This document shows, one piece after another, positions 11,954 to 51,314 of a stretch of 64,000 nucleotides of DNA; position 1 is the first letter of the stretch; every line of letters begins with the position of its first letter. The stretch spans positions 219,478 through 283,477 of the forward strand of contig JAHAKD010000001.1 in the NCBI GenBank assembly GCA_018371855.1, given 5' to 3'. The notes under the pieces are model-generated. The model was given only the letters and a program-made list of their open reading frames with translations, was not told the origin of the DNA and searched no databases. The DNA is from Clostridium sp. (GTDB taxonomy: Bacteria; Bacillota; Clostridia; TANB77; CAG-508). The position numbers and the translations under genes were made by a program.

Positions 11954-12009
11954 AATGCAATATTTTTGAAATATTTTTAACGAAAATTACGCTTTTTTCC
12001 TTTTATAAT
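11954..12009 (+). promoter_or_regulatory. Conserved promoter cassette, subtype II (P1, upstream of parB)
   Basis: AATGCAATATTTTTGAAATATTTTTAACGAAAATTACG...TATAAT. Near-identical to 17203-17258 and 45821-45876. Confidence 0.55.
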
Positions 12010-12044
12010 TTTTATAAATAAAAAAACAAGGAGGAATGATTAGT

Positions 12045-13184
12045 ATGGAAAACATAAAAAATGGAACACCAATAAAAAATAATCCTAGAGGAACTTTTAT
12101 TCCATTGATAAGAAATAATCTTCAAAGATTACAAATTGCAATGGACGAAGCTAAAAAATTTGTTGATGAAGGATTAAGTTATAATGAAGTTTTAAAAAAG
12201 GTAGATTCAAGAGTTTTATTTGTTGAAGATATTGACAAATTATTTGAAGGAAAAAGTAAAGAAGGTAATCAAAAAACAAACATTCAAGATGAAAATTATG
12301 AAAATTTAGTAGAAGAGAATAGAGAGGAATTGCCTTTTGAAAATGAAATAATTGAAGAAGAATCTATCAATACAGAAGAAAAAGGCAATATGGAGGAAAT
12401 GTTTATAGGTAAACATTCGGAAGAAAATAATAATTTTGAAGAAATTGATATTAACAATATATATGCAAATGAAGAACAGGCAAGAAAAGAATTTAATGAA
12501 TCTGAAATAAATGAATTAGCAAATTCTATTAAACGCTATGGATTACTTAGCCCTATCATTGTAGCCAAAACAGGAGATAATCACTATATGATAGTTGCTG
12601 GAGAAAGAAGATGGAGAGCTTGTAAATCTTTAAATTTGGATAAAATAAAATGTCAAATAATAAATAATGAAGAAGAAGATTTAGATTTTATATCTTTAAT
12701 AGAAAATTTTCAAAGAAAAGATCTAAATCCAATAGAAAAAGCAGTTGCATTAAATAATGTTATGAGCAAATATGAACTAACGCAAGAAGAATTAGCTGAA
12801 AAATTGGGAAAAGCTAGAAGTACAGTAACAAATATTTTAAGAATTTTGGATTTAGATAGTAGAGTTTTAGATTTACTTAAAGAAAAAAAGCTTACCTATA
12901 AACATTGCAAAACTTTATTATCAATAAAAGATCAAGAAAAACAGTATCAAAAAGCCTTAGAATTAATAGAAAATGATGTATCTTCTACCAAAGCCGAGGA
13001 AGAAATAAAACAAGAGGAAGAAAAGGAAAATTTACCACCAATATATATGGAAATAGAGCAAAAATGTCAAAATATTTTTGGTGAAAATCTTAAAATTCAA
13101 GCCAAACCTAAATCAAAAACTGTATCTTTTAAATTTAAAACTGATGAAGAATTAGAAAAATTTTTAAATTTATTAAAAAAATAG
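12045..13184 (+). CDS. parB: ParB/Spo0J-family partition protein with long acidic N-terminal extension
   Basis: ELANSIKRYGLLSPIIVAKTGDNHYMIVAGERRWRACKSL is the ParB box. HTH QEELAEKLGKARSTVTNILR. ATG 12045 lies 9 nt after GGAGGA. Confidence 0.85.
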   Translation: MENIKNGTPIKNNPRGTFIPLIRNNLQRLQIAMDEAKKFVDEGLSYNEVLKKVDSRVLFVEDIDKLFEGKSKEGNQKTNIQDENYENLVEENREELPFENEIIEEESINTEEKGNMEEMFIGKHSEENNNFEEIDINNIYANEEQARKEFNESEINELANSIKRYGLLSPIIVAKTGDNHYMIVAGERRWRACKSLNLDKIKCQIINNEEEDLDFISLIENFQRKDLNPIEKAVALNNVMSKYELTQEELAEKLGKARSTVTNILRILDLDSRVLDLLKEKKLTYKHCKTLLSIKDQEKQYQKALELIENDVSSTKAEEEIKQEEEKENLPPIYMEIEQKCQNIFGENLKIQAKPKSKTVSFKFKTDEELEKFLNLLKK

Positions 13185-13193
13185 CTAATACAA

Positions 13194-13321
13194 AATGTTC
13201 CCTTATAAACATTTTGAGCAGTAAAAACAATGTGCTTTTTTAAGTTTTACATTATAGTAGAGGGCTTGCCCCTCTAGATGTTCATACGCACGACACGGTG
13301 CGTTTATCCTGCGTTTAACTA
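13194..13321 (-). repeat. Right copy of ~127-bp inverted repeat; candidate oriT next to the relaxase operon
   Basis: Reverse complement matches 9315-9441, apart from an 8-nt variable block and a divergent middle segment. Confidence 0.8.
13305..13312 (+). other. Candidate nic site TATCCTG|C
   Basis: Matches the IncP/Ti-type nick-region consensus YATCCTG|Y. The nick position is 8 nt 3' of hairpin ACGCAC-N6-GTGCGT and ~45 nt upstream of the RHH accessory gene. Confidence 0.4.
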
Positions 13322-13355
13322 TACTATATATCAAGAAATGGGAGGCAAAAATATA

Positions 13356-13829
13356 ATGGAAGAGAAAAAAGAACAAAAAGTAACTAAATATAAAAAATCT
13401 AAAGCAAAGCAAAAAACCTTTTATATTTCAGATAAATTAAATAAGACATTAATAAATTACCAATCAGAAAAACAATATACATCTTTTTCTGAAACAATGA
13501 ACAATATTCTAAAGGAATATTTTAGCGTGCAAGCTAATAAAGACAATATTACTATGATTACGGAAATTTTAAGAAATGTAATAAGACAAGAATTAAATAG
13601 TAAATTTGAAAGACAAATTGCATTAGAAGTAAAAGGTCTAAAAAATAATTTGTCGAACTCTTATTTACAGGCAAAAATACTGTCAGTTCTATTTAATTCA
13701 GATGATGATAAAGAATTTATGAGAAATGCAATTAAGGAAGCAAACGCAATAGGTTATAAAGCTATTAAAAATTATGATATAAAAACTGACTTTGAAAAAT
13801 TAGCAAATTTGGATAAAGGAGAAAATTAA
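13356..13829 (+). CDS. Ribbon-helix-helix relaxosome accessory-like protein
   Basis: ATG 13356 after GGGAGGCAAAAATATA. KTFYISDKLNKTLINYQSEKQYTSFSETMNNILKEYF is an RHH-like pattern. Located immediately upstream of the relaxase. Confidence 0.5.
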   Translation: MEEKKEQKVTKYKKSKAKQKTFYISDKLNKTLINYQSEKQYTSFSETMNNILKEYFSVQANKDNITMITEILRNVIRQELNSKFERQIALEVKGLKNNLSNSYLQAKILSVLFNSDDDKEFMRNAIKEANAIGYKAIKNYDIKTDFEKLANLDKGEN

Positions 13830-13831
13830 AA

Positions 13832-14008
13832 ATGATTTTTTGTAGTTTTTGTGGAGATAAAATAGAACCATTAAATATTTTTTATCATGATAAGAGAAAT
13901 AATAAAAACTATTGTGAGATATGTTTAGATACATATATTGCACAAGACAAGTTAAAAGTTATAAATGAAAATGGTGAAAAATTAGAAAGAAGTGTTGCTA
14001 ATGAATAA
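13832..14008 (+). CDS. Small zinc-ribbon protein (58 aa)
   Basis: CSFCGDK...CEICLD (two CxxC pairs). Tightly packed between the RHH and relaxase genes. Confidence 0.4.
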   Translation: MIFCSFCGDKIEPLNIFYHDKRNNKNYCEICLDTYIAQDKLKVINENGEKLERSVANE

Positions 14009-49595: not shown

Positions 49596-49697
49596 TTATA
49601 ATTTATCAAAAATTATAGATTTTTTAAGGAACTTTATAGTCCAGAAAAATATATTTTCATTTCTATAGATATAAAGTAAGATAGGAGATAGAATAAA

Positions 49698-49874
49698 ATG
49701 TTAATTAATGCTAAAAATCAAATTCTTGTTAGTAATTTTAATAAAATTGTAGATTTAAATAAGAAAATTTTACATATAGATATTAAACATAATGATACTT
49801 TTAAATCTTTAATAAAGTTTCAAGAGCTACAAATTAAAAATTTAGAAACAAAATTAGAAGTATATAAGAAATAA
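49698..49874 (+). CDS. Small hypothetical protein (58 aa)
   Basis: ATG after TAGGAGATAGAATAAA. Confidence 0.3.
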   Translation: MLINAKNQILVSNFNKIVDLNKKILHIDIKHNDTFKSLIKFQELQIKNLETKLEVYKK

Positions 49875-49952
49875 GATATAGTTAATAAATTGATAGAATT
49901 CTTAATTTATGCTACAATATAGAAGAAATAAATTGAAAGGAATTATTAAAAA

Positions 49953-50216
49953 ATGTCAAAAAGTTTAATTGATAAAGATAAAGCAAAGATTTATGAAACT
50001 TGCATACCAGATTATCTAAAACATGATATAGATGAATATTTAAAATATAAAGATGATAAAGATTGCACAATTATAGATTGTCTATTAGATGAAATATACG
50101 GTTCTATAAATTCAGCATTATATAGTGAGGAAATAACAGAAGAACAAGCAAACTATCTAAGAGATAAATATTATTATGGATTAGATTGGCTAGAGGGTAA
50201 AAAAAGTGATTTTTAG
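49953..50216 (+). CDS. Hypothetical protein upstream of the HipA-like kinase
   Basis: 87 aa with no HTH apparent. Confidence 0.55.
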   Translation: MSKSLIDKDKAKIYETCIPDYLKHDIDEYLKYKDDKDCTIIDCLLDEIYGSINSALYSEEITEEQANYLRDKYYYGLDWLEGKKSDF

Positions 50217-50236
50217 AAAGGAGTGAATTTTATAAG

Positions 50237-51169
50237 ATGGAAGATTTAATAGATTTTACGAATTGTAAGGTAGATAATACATATTTATACAGAGGTCAAA
50301 ATGGAAAGAAAATTGGTATAAATTATAATAATCATATATATATGTTAAAATTTCCACCGTTCAAGGAAGATGTTGAAAATTATTCAAATAGTTGTATTTC
50401 TGAATATGTTGCTTGTCATATATTTGCTTCTATGGGATTTAAAGTACAGGAAACATTATTAGGAAAATTCACTTTAGAAAATAATAAAACAAAAATAGTT
50501 TGTGCATGCAAAGATTTTACTGAAAATGATTATATTTTAAAAGAATTTGCAGAATTAAAAAATAGTATTATAAATTCACCAGCCAATGGATATGGAACAG
50601 ACTTAATTGAAGTACTAGATACTATAAATGAACAAAATTTATATCCTAATGATAAATTAAAAGATTTTTTTTTGGATATGTTTATTGCAGATTCACTTTT
50701 AGGAAATTTTGATAGACATAATGGAAATTGGGGATTTTTAATTAATCGAGATACTAAAGAAATAGAAATTGCACCTATTTTTGATTGTGGCTCTTGTTTA
50801 TATCCACAACTTGAAGATAGTCAAATGAAAGAATATATAAACAAGCCAGGAGAAATAAATAAAAGAATATACATATTTCCAAATTCTGCATTAAAATTAA
50901 ATAATAAAAAAATAAACTACTATGAATTTATAAATTCTGGAAAAGTTGATGATTGTAATAAGGCTCTTTTAAGAGTATATCCTAAGATTGATTTTAGAAA
51001 AATTAATGATATTATAGATAATACACCTAGTATATCTGATATAAGAAAAGATTTCTATAAAACAATATTACATGAAAGATACGAAAAAATATTAACACCA
51101 GAATATCAAAAGCTTCAAAAAGCATTAAATAATATAAATGATGAAGAATCAGAAGAAGATGAAATCTAA
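50237..51169 (+). CDS. HipA-like Ser/Thr kinase (C-terminal-domain-only type) with acidic tail (ESEEDEI)
   Basis: Catalytic loop LGNFDRHNGNWGFL, the IFDCGSCL Mg-binding motif and the Gly-rich GQNGKKIG. Confidence 0.65.
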   Translation: MEDLIDFTNCKVDNTYLYRGQNGKKIGINYNNHIYMLKFPPFKEDVENYSNSCISEYVACHIFASMGFKVQETLLGKFTLENNKTKIVCACKDFTENDYILKEFAELKNSIINSPANGYGTDLIEVLDTINEQNLYPNDKLKDFFLDMFIADSLLGNFDRHNGNWGFLINRDTKEIEIAPIFDCGSCLYPQLEDSQMKEYINKPGEINKRIYIFPNSALKLNNKKINYYEFINSGKVDDCNKALLRVYPKIDFRKINDIIDNTPSISDIRKDFYKTILHERYEKILTPEYQKLQKALNNINDEESEEDEI

Positions 51170-51225
51170 TATATATTATTAATAAAGTCCTTAATGGGGC
51201 TTTATTTTTTACCTTTAATATCTCT

Positions 51226-51314
51226 TTTAAATATTTAAAGGTATAGATTTTAATAACAAATGCAATATTTGTGCAATATTTTTGAGAAAAATTACGTTTT
51301 TTCCCTCCTATAAT
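51226..51314 (+). promoter_or_regulatory. Conserved promoter/operator cassette, subtype I (P8)
   Basis: TTTAAATATTTAAAGGTATAGATTTTAAT...AATGCAATATTTGTGCAATATTTTTGAGAAAAATTACG...TATAAT. Confidence 0.6.

Follow-up and report, generated by a model that had tools for sequence, protein, structure and literature searches.

What controls a set of transfer operons that each begin with nearly the same stretch of non-coding DNA, and where does one of these operons stop and the next start? The question is raised by a 64-kb window (the whole stretch of DNA that was analysed, 64,000 nucleotides of contig JAHAKD010000001.1 from Clostridium sp.), which has 24% G+C and almost all its genes on one strand and which, judged by its sequence, is an integrative conjugative element (ICE) of Gram-positive type from an uncultured human-gut Bacillota. 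An earlier inspection of this DNA (hereafter the original prediction) had picked out eight near-identical modules and proposed that they were the promoters of a single regulon. The modules, here called cassettes, were re-examined by repeat and motif searches, by comparison with related elements and by domain annotation of the open reading frames (ORFs) of the window using Pfam (on ~70 ORFs), NCBIfam and PHROG scans. With slightly more confidence than doubt, they are read as factor-dependent promoters of the sigmaA type that form self-contained transcription-unit boundaries and tie the operons behind them into one transfer regulon.

The anatomy of the cassettes can be observed directly. A 23-nt core, TGCAATATTTNTGMAATNTTTTT, occurs eight times in the window with zero mismatches and always on the + strand (Table 1), where 0.16 copies were expected by chance and 0 of 100 shuffles reached that count; the degenerate form TGCAATATTTnTG(C/A)AATnTTTTT likewise has eight copies on the same strand. 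A repeat search groups the same eight sites as one family and their alignment shows common blocks, so the eight modules of the original prediction stand, with end coordinates that match the computed -10 hexamers. When the first T of TATAAT is numbered -12, box 1 (TGCAAT) lies at -60 and box 2 (TG(C/A)AAT) at -49, within the tandem 11-bp units TGCAATATTTn and TG(C/A)AAT(A/T)TTTT; because these are true 11-bp tandem repeats, as the predicted direct repeat one helical turn apart implied, both boxes are turned to the same side of the helix. A T5 run at -42..-38 is followed by TAwCAAAAA with AAAA at -33..-30, a degenerate third unit (TAwCAAAAAnT) that overlaps the -35-like TTAwCA. A T-rich, C-containing stretch then precedes TATAAT (-12..-7), and the A-rich leader ends in a strong ribosome-binding site (RBS). 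The -10 hexamer begins exactly 48 nt after box 1 in 8/8 copies, with RBS and start codon following at 25-40 nt. Iteron-like arrays of the box were not found elsewhere in the window.

Measured against sigmaA promoters, the cassettes have the -10 and lack the rest, having neither a TTGACA-like -35 at 16-18 bp nor an extended -10 TG (-15/-14). As originally noted, the hexamer at 17 bp (CAAAAA) is no -35, and the nearest candidate, TTAACA or TTATCA, stands at 21 bp, which is too far for use by sigmaA. Two other predicted constants hold in part: TATAAT is present in seven of the eight copies, that of virD4 (cassette 3) having TACCAT with the RBS only 7 nt later, and GGGAGG is the RBS of three copies only, the others being AGGAGG-like. 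A generic sigma-70 promoter scan is uninformative in DNA of 24% GC (141 found, 151 expected). The leader alone folds weakly (-2.4 kcal/mol, z -0.6) and Rfam gave no match at the gathering threshold; by these measures it does not behave as a structured RNA, riboswitch or attenuator.

Conservation sets the boxes and the -10 apart from the DNA around them. Through homologues of VirD4, a 117-aa protein of the element, the TraC-like protein and VirB4, ~20 related contigs were fetched, and all window-type relatives carry the cassette at orthologous sites. In the resulting 36 distinct copies the distance from box 1 to the -10 is fixed at 48 nt with zero indels, and AAAA at -33..-30, A at -27 and the TA..AT of the -10 are invariant. 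To keep the motif itself from steering the choice, sets were assembled from the DNA ahead of traC, virB4 and pilin genes whose orthologues were picked by protein identity alone; in these, box 1 and the -10 hexamer vary in 0/18 columns each, and the proportion of varying columns is 22% in box 2, 43% in the palindrome, 46% in the leader, 63% in the linker and 87% far upstream. Box 2 toggles between TGCAAT and TGAAAT in orthologous cassettes of relatives; the two states interconvert, and the two subtypes that had been distinguished on this ground are therefore not fixed classes.

A dedicated reader of the boxes is argued for by a sister element, L001, whose VirD4 is 85% identical (amino acids) and which is syntenic with the window from the topoisomerase to the adhesin. 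L001 carries the homologous cassette at five orthologous sites with other boxes, TGGTAAA/TGGTTTT/TGGTAAA at an 11-bp period (in full TGGTAAA(a/t)t(c/t)G, TGGTTTTTTTT and TGGTAAAATTA), and with the upstream module replaced by TTTAAACTTTAAATTAAACTTTAAA; TATAAT stands as far from the boxes as it does in the window, and the AAAATTA(C/A)G block is retained. Between the two elements at least 10 boxes have thus changed in concert with the geometry preserved, which argues for a trans-acting factor of matching specificity. The simplest reading would be that the boxes co-evolved with a DNA-binding protein and that the new version spread by gene conversion. This coordinated swap strengthens the predicted single regulon, and a dedicated box-reading factor that defines it is considered probable.

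Most cassettes also appear to mark boundaries between transcription units. An intrinsic terminator stands directly upstream of six of the eight, with a strong hairpin and T-run before cassettes 3, 4, 5, 6 and 8 (dG -10 to -21 kcal/mol, z -3.1 to -5.7) and a weaker one (z -1.85) ahead of cassette 1; the terminators of cassettes 6 and 3 are 82% identical. The pilin, traC and virB4 cassettes have a further property: positions -26..-7 are complementary to their own RBS and can pair with it as an anti-Shine-Dalgarno (anti-SD) strand, with up to 10-13 bp formed (dG -11 to -18 kcal/mol, z -2 to -5; TTATTCCCTC with GAGGGAATAA, for example). Such pairing is absent in cassettes 1, 2, 3, 7 and 8. Transcripts reading through from upstream should have their RBS sequestered in this way, and because the hairpin spans the -10, a translatable mRNA must start between its arms, at the cassette promoter. 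Fold-back structures protect the IS10 transposase gene against outside transcription, and the cassette anti-SD resembles that shielding.

More distant relatives place recognisable promoters at the same positions. In L027, two TTTCAAAA boxes with an 11-bp period abut a canonical TTGACT-17-TATTAT, and in L004 and L026 another conserved element, ending in TTTAC(A/T) and followed 16-17 bp on by a TATAAT-like -10, occupies the equivalent intergenic sites; canonical promoters at equivalent sites of these three elements indicate that the positions do hold promoters. L006 has a terminator-type cassette and L028 none. In L026-L028 the genes of the type IV secretion system (T4SS) are arranged in long operons with only 3-4 cassettes, or none, so the split into many identical units is derived in the clade of the window and L001. 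As a separate observation, the canonical promoters of L004, L026 and L027 are followed by a leader hairpin and T-run immediately ahead of the RBS, which suggests control of each operon by attenuation or antitermination. A scan of IMG/VR for the box gave four matches, none in a related element, and a scan for the L001-type box gave none. The same 11-mer does occur there in tandem arrays on unrelated AT-rich contigs of viral type (TGCAATATTTT x6, TGCAATATTTC x4); such arrays look like centromere repeats or iterons, a hint that proteins reading this 11-bp unit may form a wider family.

The promoter activity that we infer for the cassettes, in line with the original prediction, is very probable given their fixed orientation and RBS distance, the invariant TAYMAT, the upstream terminators, the canonical promoters at equivalent sites in distant relatives and the anti-SD hairpins in three cassette types.

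The upstream module has a distribution of its own. Where complete, it consists of the palindrome TTTAAA-TA-TTTAAA at -95..-82 (centre ~-88, about three helical turns upstream of the boxes) followed by GGTATAGATTTTAAT, the partner of the palindrome being ATTTTAAT. The original prediction took a perfect palindrome as part of the full form; this is right for five cassettes, with one mismatch in cassette 5 and no palindrome in copies 1 and 2. The 14-bp sequence TTTAAATATTTAAA, made of A/T only with its two TTTAAA hexamers, is exact at seven sites in the window, and sites with at most one mismatch number 12 against 2.06 expected. Of the two orphan copies that had been reported, that at 29787 is confirmed and the second lies at 35695, one position from that given (35696); a further near-palindrome at 19893 stands upstream of a toxin-antitoxin promoter. 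Not being specific to the box-bearing promoters, the palindrome also precedes canonical sigmaA promoters of accessory genes, at varying distances, including that of a Fic gene in L033, and it marks indel junctions; it is therefore a separate module. Both ends of a 1.5-kb insert in L033 (Fic and a 174-aa ORF) share window sequence 45775-45810, L017 lacks the toxin-antitoxin locus with the junction at 19893-19933, a 2.3-kb replacement between relatives is joined at 35666-35844, and the orphan palindrome at 35695-35708 is itself an indel junction when compared with relatives.

Two loci behind such palindromes deserve description. The promoter at 29833-29861 serves a truncated ORF and the 117-aa gene; the former (29880-30010) is what remains of an ORF that in L011, L013, L015 and L033 is 123-131 aa long and lies ahead of the 117-aa gene. 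The second is the type III toxin-antitoxin locus, which has a canonical promoter to itself; it comprises antitoxin RNA repeats at 19992-20102 (a 50-nt unit repeated in tandem 2.2 times, with one GTCGCAA...TTGCGAC hairpin per unit) and a CptN-family toxin at 20161-20928 (NF047359, E=1e-49), and is absent from L001 and L017.

Table 1. Positions of the cassettes and associated features. Positions are those of the window unless an element or contig is named; the 23-nt core starts with box 1.
Feature	Position	Strand	Parts or values	Context
Cassette 1	11943..12009	+	box 1 TGCAAT 11956; box 2 TGAAAT 11967; -10 TATAAT 12004-12009; no full palindrome	upstream of parB/RHH/MobL-relaxase operon (ParB, relaxase by Pfam)
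Cassette 2	17192..17258	+	box 1 17205; box 2 TGAAAT; -10 17253-17258; no palindrome, no upstream terminator	upstream of sortase operon
Cassette 3	21028..21116	+	palindrome 21028; boxes 21063, 21074; weak -10 TACCAT 21111-21116; RBS 7 nt on	upstream of virD4 (VirD4 by domain scan)
Cassette 4	23784..23872	+	palindrome 23784; boxes 23819, 23830; -10 23867-23872	upstream of pilin/TrbL (VirB6-like) operon (Pfam)
Cassette 5	30585..30673	+	palindrome with one mismatch 30585; boxes 30620, 30631; -10 30668-30673	upstream of TraC-like/TED-SpaA adhesin operon (Pfam)
Cassette 6	36625..36713	+	palindrome 36625; boxes 36660, 36671; -10 36708-36713	upstream of virB4/M23 peptidase operon (Pfam)
Cassette 7	45787..45876	+	palindrome 45787; box 1 45823; box 2 TGAAAT; -10 45871-45876	upstream of small nucleic-acid-binding protein operon (Pfam, PHROG): 84 aa, SpoVG 85 aa, Arc-like RHH 65 aa, and more
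Cassette 8	51226..51314	+	palindrome 51226; boxes 51261, 51272; -10 51309-51314	upstream of second TED/SpaA adhesin and cargo operon (Pfam)
Terminator	20965..21012	+	16-bp stem and T-run; dG -20.4, z -5.2	before cassette 3
Terminator	23717..23762	+	dG -17.0, z -5.35	before cassette 4
Terminator	30519..30553	+	dG -10.4, z -3.8	before cassette 5
Terminator	36560..36608	+	dG -21.1, z -5.7	before cassette 6
Terminator	51181..51212	+	dG -11.9, z -3.1	before cassette 8
Anti-SD/SD regions	23846-23900, 30647-30705, 36687-36745			also in orthologues
Orphan palindrome	29787-29800 (29787..29861)	+	canonical promoter TTGATT-17-TATAAT at 29833-29861	
Orphan palindrome and GGTAT	35695..35708	+		right after DUF7659 gene stop, upstream of SpoVG-like gene 35792-36517
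Near-palindrome	19893..19990	+	TCTAAATATTTAAA and ATATTTTAAT, then extended -10 promoter TTGATT-17-TGcTATATT	type III toxin-antitoxin
ParB-family protein	12036..13184	+	ParB_N (E=2.7e-25), HTH_ParB (E=1.7e-29), GERRWRA motif (AGERRWRA)	
Arc-like RHH, 65 aa	46657..46854	+	phrog_582, E=0.0039	in cassette-7 operon
117-aa basic protein	30066..30419	+	very narrow family; candidate regulator	own canonical promoter and palindrome
Leader hairpins (examples)	L027 4187-4360; L026 5755-5860; L004 9889-9986			
11-mer arrays	L031 1110-1192; L032 8030-8075			
Acidic-tail repeats	20896-20944, 26539-26587, 28535-28568, 35656-35689, 36485-36533, 51137-51185, 57772-57820			

Several points weigh against the favoured reading. 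The domain scans found no Sigma70, Trans_reg_C, FlhC/D or LytTR domain among the element's ORFs, so that the dedicated sigma-like factor of the original prediction has no detected counterpart there, and no element protein could be tied to the boxes; the AlphaFold model of the 117-aa protein reaches a pLDDT of 47. The perfect TATAAT, flanked by T/A tracts, might give basal activity without an activator in a host of 24% GC, the copy-to-copy conservation is partly inflated by common descent and gene conversion, and L027 has its third repeat lying over a good -35, as the site of a repressor would.

The last point leads to the alternative that survives best, which is nonetheless unlikely: the boxes would be operators for a global repressor of the ribbon-helix-helix (RHH) class, of the omega/ParR/Arc kind, such as the 65-aa product of 46657 or the RHH-like product of 13359, the TATAAT promoters would be intrinsically active through their A/T tracts, and the element, normally silenced by repression, would be switched on by de-repression. 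The omega protein of Inc18 plasmids is a small RHH protein that binds 7-bp heptads, represses, and coordinates several plasmid promoters; RHH proteins typically bind short tandem repeats cooperatively, as omega of pSM19035 does on its heptads and ParR on the 11-bp iterons of R1 parC. The element has two RHH-like genes and short tandem repeats, the Arc-like one lies within the cassette-7 operon, as negative feedback would have it, and the TGCAATATTTT arrays of unrelated contigs look like iteron sites. Unlike the heptads of omega, the units here are 11 bp long, and the RHH genes are only candidates. Two well-conserved boxes at -60 to -44, upstream of what polymerase needs, are poorly placed for simple occlusion, and low basal activity is to be expected because there is neither a usable -35 nor an extended -10 TG. 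L001 and L004, moreover, have almost identical beta-strands in the 13359 product despite having entirely different cassettes. Whether the box-reading factor is an activator is regarded as an even call.

Among the products of the element, two may be named as candidate readers. The ParB-family protein has no ParA partner nearby and carries both the CTP-binding motif and the helix-turn-helix (HTH) of KorB/ParB-type proteins; by analogy with KorB it is a candidate binder of the palindrome. It is 52-56% identical to its L001 counterpart (tblastn; MAFFT), with the divergence mostly in an acidic N-terminal tail; the recognition helices of the two show four conservative differences, and the upstream module of L001 is different as well. 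Canonical parS is not enriched in the window. The 65-aa Arc-like RHH protein is a candidate binder of the tandem boxes, and its operon, which encodes small nucleic-acid-binding proteins only and is conserved in relatives, could plausibly serve as a feedback module.

Other candidates were tried and set aside. The 117-aa protein has six homologues only and no PDB or family match, and cannot explain the box swap because its HTH-like helix is unchanged in L001. The N-terminal domain of the RHH-like protein at 13359-13829 differs between window and L001, yet that of L001 is close to that of L004 despite unrelated cassettes, and its beta-strand does not track cassette type; it is probably a relaxosome accessory factor. 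None of the XRE, SpoVG and HTH/AbrB proteins put forward in the original prediction could be linked to the boxes, and readings of the boxes as CodY, Spo0A or sigma-54 sites were rejected by inspection, since conserved positions mismatch and L001 differs.

A host response regulator of the OmpR/PhoB/WalR type, a possible reader by analogy, is a quite improbable explanation, in which the element would couple its transfer genes to a two-component signal of the host and the L001 lineage would have been retuned to another regulator or host. Sites for this family typically consist of hexamer-N5-hexamer direct repeats with an 11-bp period in the place of the -35, and this format is seen in TGCAAT-N5-TG(C/A)AAT of the window and TGGTAA-N5-TGGTTT-N5-TGGTAA of L001. 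The WalR/VicR site is TGTWAH-N5-TGTWAH (PMC4168254), from which TGCAAT and TGGTAA each differ at position 3 only. No winged-helix protein was found among the scanned element ORFs, as a host-encoded reader would predict. That same position 3, however, differs in every half-site, so that the boxes miss the WalR consensus itself, and window-type cassettes occur in metagenome-assembled genomes (MAGs) of different taxa (uncultured Clostridium sp., Candidatus Faecimonas). The spoIIG promoter combines a sigmaA -10 and an over-spaced -35-like hexamer with tandem boxes at a 10-11 bp period. With such Spo0A-dependent and with WalR-PhoP promoters (WalR format, PMC4168254) the cassettes share over-long -35 spacing, tandem boxes at ~-60 to -35 and a further upstream site; the likeness is architectural only, as the boxes match neither the 0A box (TGNCGAA) nor TGTWAH and the element has no response regulator.

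Less probable still is the idea that the repeats are mainly recombination modules, alike through gene conversion and not through factor binding, in the manner of the PeSL cassettes of T4-type phages, which are composite terminator-promoter repeats at module-shuffling junctions (PMC2839356, PMC4122927). As with PeSL, a composite terminator and promoter is repeated through a mobile genome and indels or replacements have their junctions on the repeats: indels of relatives start and end at the palindrome module (those of L033 and L017 and the replacement at 35666-35844), and the sortase module, though preceded by a cassette every time, is placed differently in the window, L004 and L027. PeSL differ in being ordinary sigma70 early promoters in hyperplastic accessory regions, whereas the cassettes head core transfer operons and carry what appear to be factor-specific boxes. 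Homogenisation alone leaves unexplained why box 1 and the -10 are invariant beside a linker varying in 63% of its columns, and why in L001 only the boxes changed with the geometry kept; a role in recombination is compatible with the regulon model, as an addition and not a replacement. Hardly credible, lastly, is a sigma-54 (-24/-12) promoter, TGGCAC-N5-TTGCA, or a dedicated alternative sigma factor: the 11-nt G-to-G spacing of the boxes equals that of the -24 and -12 elements, yet the GG at -24 and GC at -12 are missing (box 1 is TGCA, box 2 TGAA in 3/8 copies and in many orthologues, and L001 has TGGT/TGGT, with GG and no GC), the invariant TATAAT 31 nt downstream would be left unexplained, and no sigma-like protein was detected in the scans.

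The cassette system is not a member of the SetCD/AcaCD, Kor, PeSL or Spo0A/response-regulator families, as its boxes are new, its host group is different, and the proteins that define those families are absent from the element or were not recognised in it. It comes close in logic to SetCD of SXT/R391 ICEs and AcaCD of IncA/C plasmids, where one box at or over the -35 position of many transfer promoters makes the transfer apparatus a single regulon (PMC4344509, PMC4207636) and where the box-dependent transfer promoters of the SetCD regulon lack a recognisable -35 (PMC4344509); here the same box takes that position in 8/8 cassettes. Those systems are Gammaproteobacterial, with a single 19-bp box and FlhDC-like activators, in contrast to the two to three 11-bp tandem units found in a low-GC member of the Bacillota with no FlhC/FlhD homologue in the ORFs scanned by Pfam. 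In the global control of IncP (RK2) plasmids by KorA/KorB, in which KorB is a ParB-family CTPase (PMC11790492), short palindromic operators precede many operons, as the 8-12 palindromes at variable promoter distance do here beside an orphan ParB (GERRxRA). KorB represses canonical promoters, whereas the palindrome of the window is all A/T, no KorA-like partner was identified and the main feature is the direct-repeat boxes.

Under the favoured reading of sigmaA-type, factor-dependent promoters, each cassette would work in four parts. An intrinsic terminator would close the upstream operon (in 6/8 cassettes); the upstream module with palindrome and ATTTTAAT would follow; two 11-bp units at -60 and -49, with a degenerate third over the mis-spaced TTAwCA, would take up the factor; and a sigmaA-type TATAAT, a short A-rich leader and a strong RBS would complete the unit. 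Housekeeping RNA polymerase alone would be inefficient at these promoters. A box-matched DNA-binding protein, bound head-to-tail on one helix face from ~-60 to -30, would recruit or reposition polymerase in a class II-like mode of activation comparable to SetCD/AcaCD promoters or Spo0A-dependent spoIIG. The eight units would then fire together, expressing ~45 genes for DNA processing, sortase, coupling protein, T4SS channel, two adhesin operons and the SpoVG/RHH operon. The palindrome module would be a separable second element, possibly an operator for another regulator (the orphan ParB being a candidate), and would double as a recombination junction for gain and loss of gene modules.

The element itself encodes XRE regulators, a topoisomerase, ParB, a MobL-like relaxase, a sortase, VirD4 (CD1115 family), T4SS pilin-like proteins, TrbL/VirB6, a TraC-like protein, VirB4, an M23 peptidase, two thioester (TED)/SpaA adhesins, two SpoVG-like proteins, a type III toxin-antitoxin toxin, a HipA-like kinase and a nucleotidyltransferase, with two tyrosine recombinases at the right end of the window. 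Its close relatives are human-gut metagenome contigs and MAGs of the taxa named above; one sits on a contig of 487 kb and another on a contig of >1 Mb, for which reason the element is taken to be a chromosomal ICE. A megablast search of PLSDB plasmids with 50 kb of the element gave no DNA-level match, and among plasmid VirB4 proteins the nearest, from Bacillus thuringiensis plasmids, reaches just 36% identity, which together indicate that no characterised relative exists. No tRNA or tmRNA was found at the element end.

Some further features were noted in passing. The TrbL/VirB6-like gene at 25076-25931 consists of two overlapping ORFs of 113 and 185 aa, where L001, L013 and L015 have a single gene of 288-290 aa; either the gene carries a frameshift or the sequence contains an error, and the element in this copy may be defective for transfer. 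An acidic tail (..EEAEEDE*) is common to many unrelated gene ends and produces DNA repeats at operon ends, at one of which a replacement junction between relatives (~26581) falls. A 60-aa ORF at 49358-49540, with 92% DNA identity to the N-terminal signal region of the large adhesin (31401-31476), is likely an adhesin gene remnant. A 60-nt repeat with core CGACGCACGAGAATCAATTTTAAGC has two copies, 82% identical, one at 41908-41967 after the terminator ahead of the 41982 operon and one at 61913-61972 just past the second recombinase gene; it is also found in L033 at the orthologous site, and may represent a second kind of shared promoter/operator or, alternatively, an att-like site that delimits a nested module of 20 kb.

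The Gram-positive conjugation systems studied so far (pCF10, pLS20, ICEBs1, Tn916, pIP501) mostly use one promoter and one long operon, a pattern that the layout of the distant relatives matches. In this human-gut clade the apparatus appears instead to have been cut into ~8 insulated units behind the same factor-dependent promoter, and the sister element has changed the code at every site. A bolder and tentative proposal, more doubtful than the reading favoured above, is that an undescribed master regulator reads a 'programmable' 11-bp tandem code (TGCAAT here, TGGTAA in the sister, TTTCAAAA in a distant lineage), all transfer, sortase and adhesin operons having been rewired through one spreading terminator-operator-promoter cassette; sister elements within one gut community would then have orthogonal regulons free of cross-talk, and the cassette would be at once a recombination joint and an anti-SD filter against read-through. 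If the regulon is confirmed, it would offer a one-box, one-factor handle to turn on or off the transfer of a widespread family of gut ICEs, a case from nature of operator turnover across a whole regulon, and orthogonal promoter/regulator parts for very AT-rich Clostridia. The cassettes also illustrate how repeats of this kind can drive the modular exchange of cargo such as toxin-antitoxin loci, Fic genes and adhesins.

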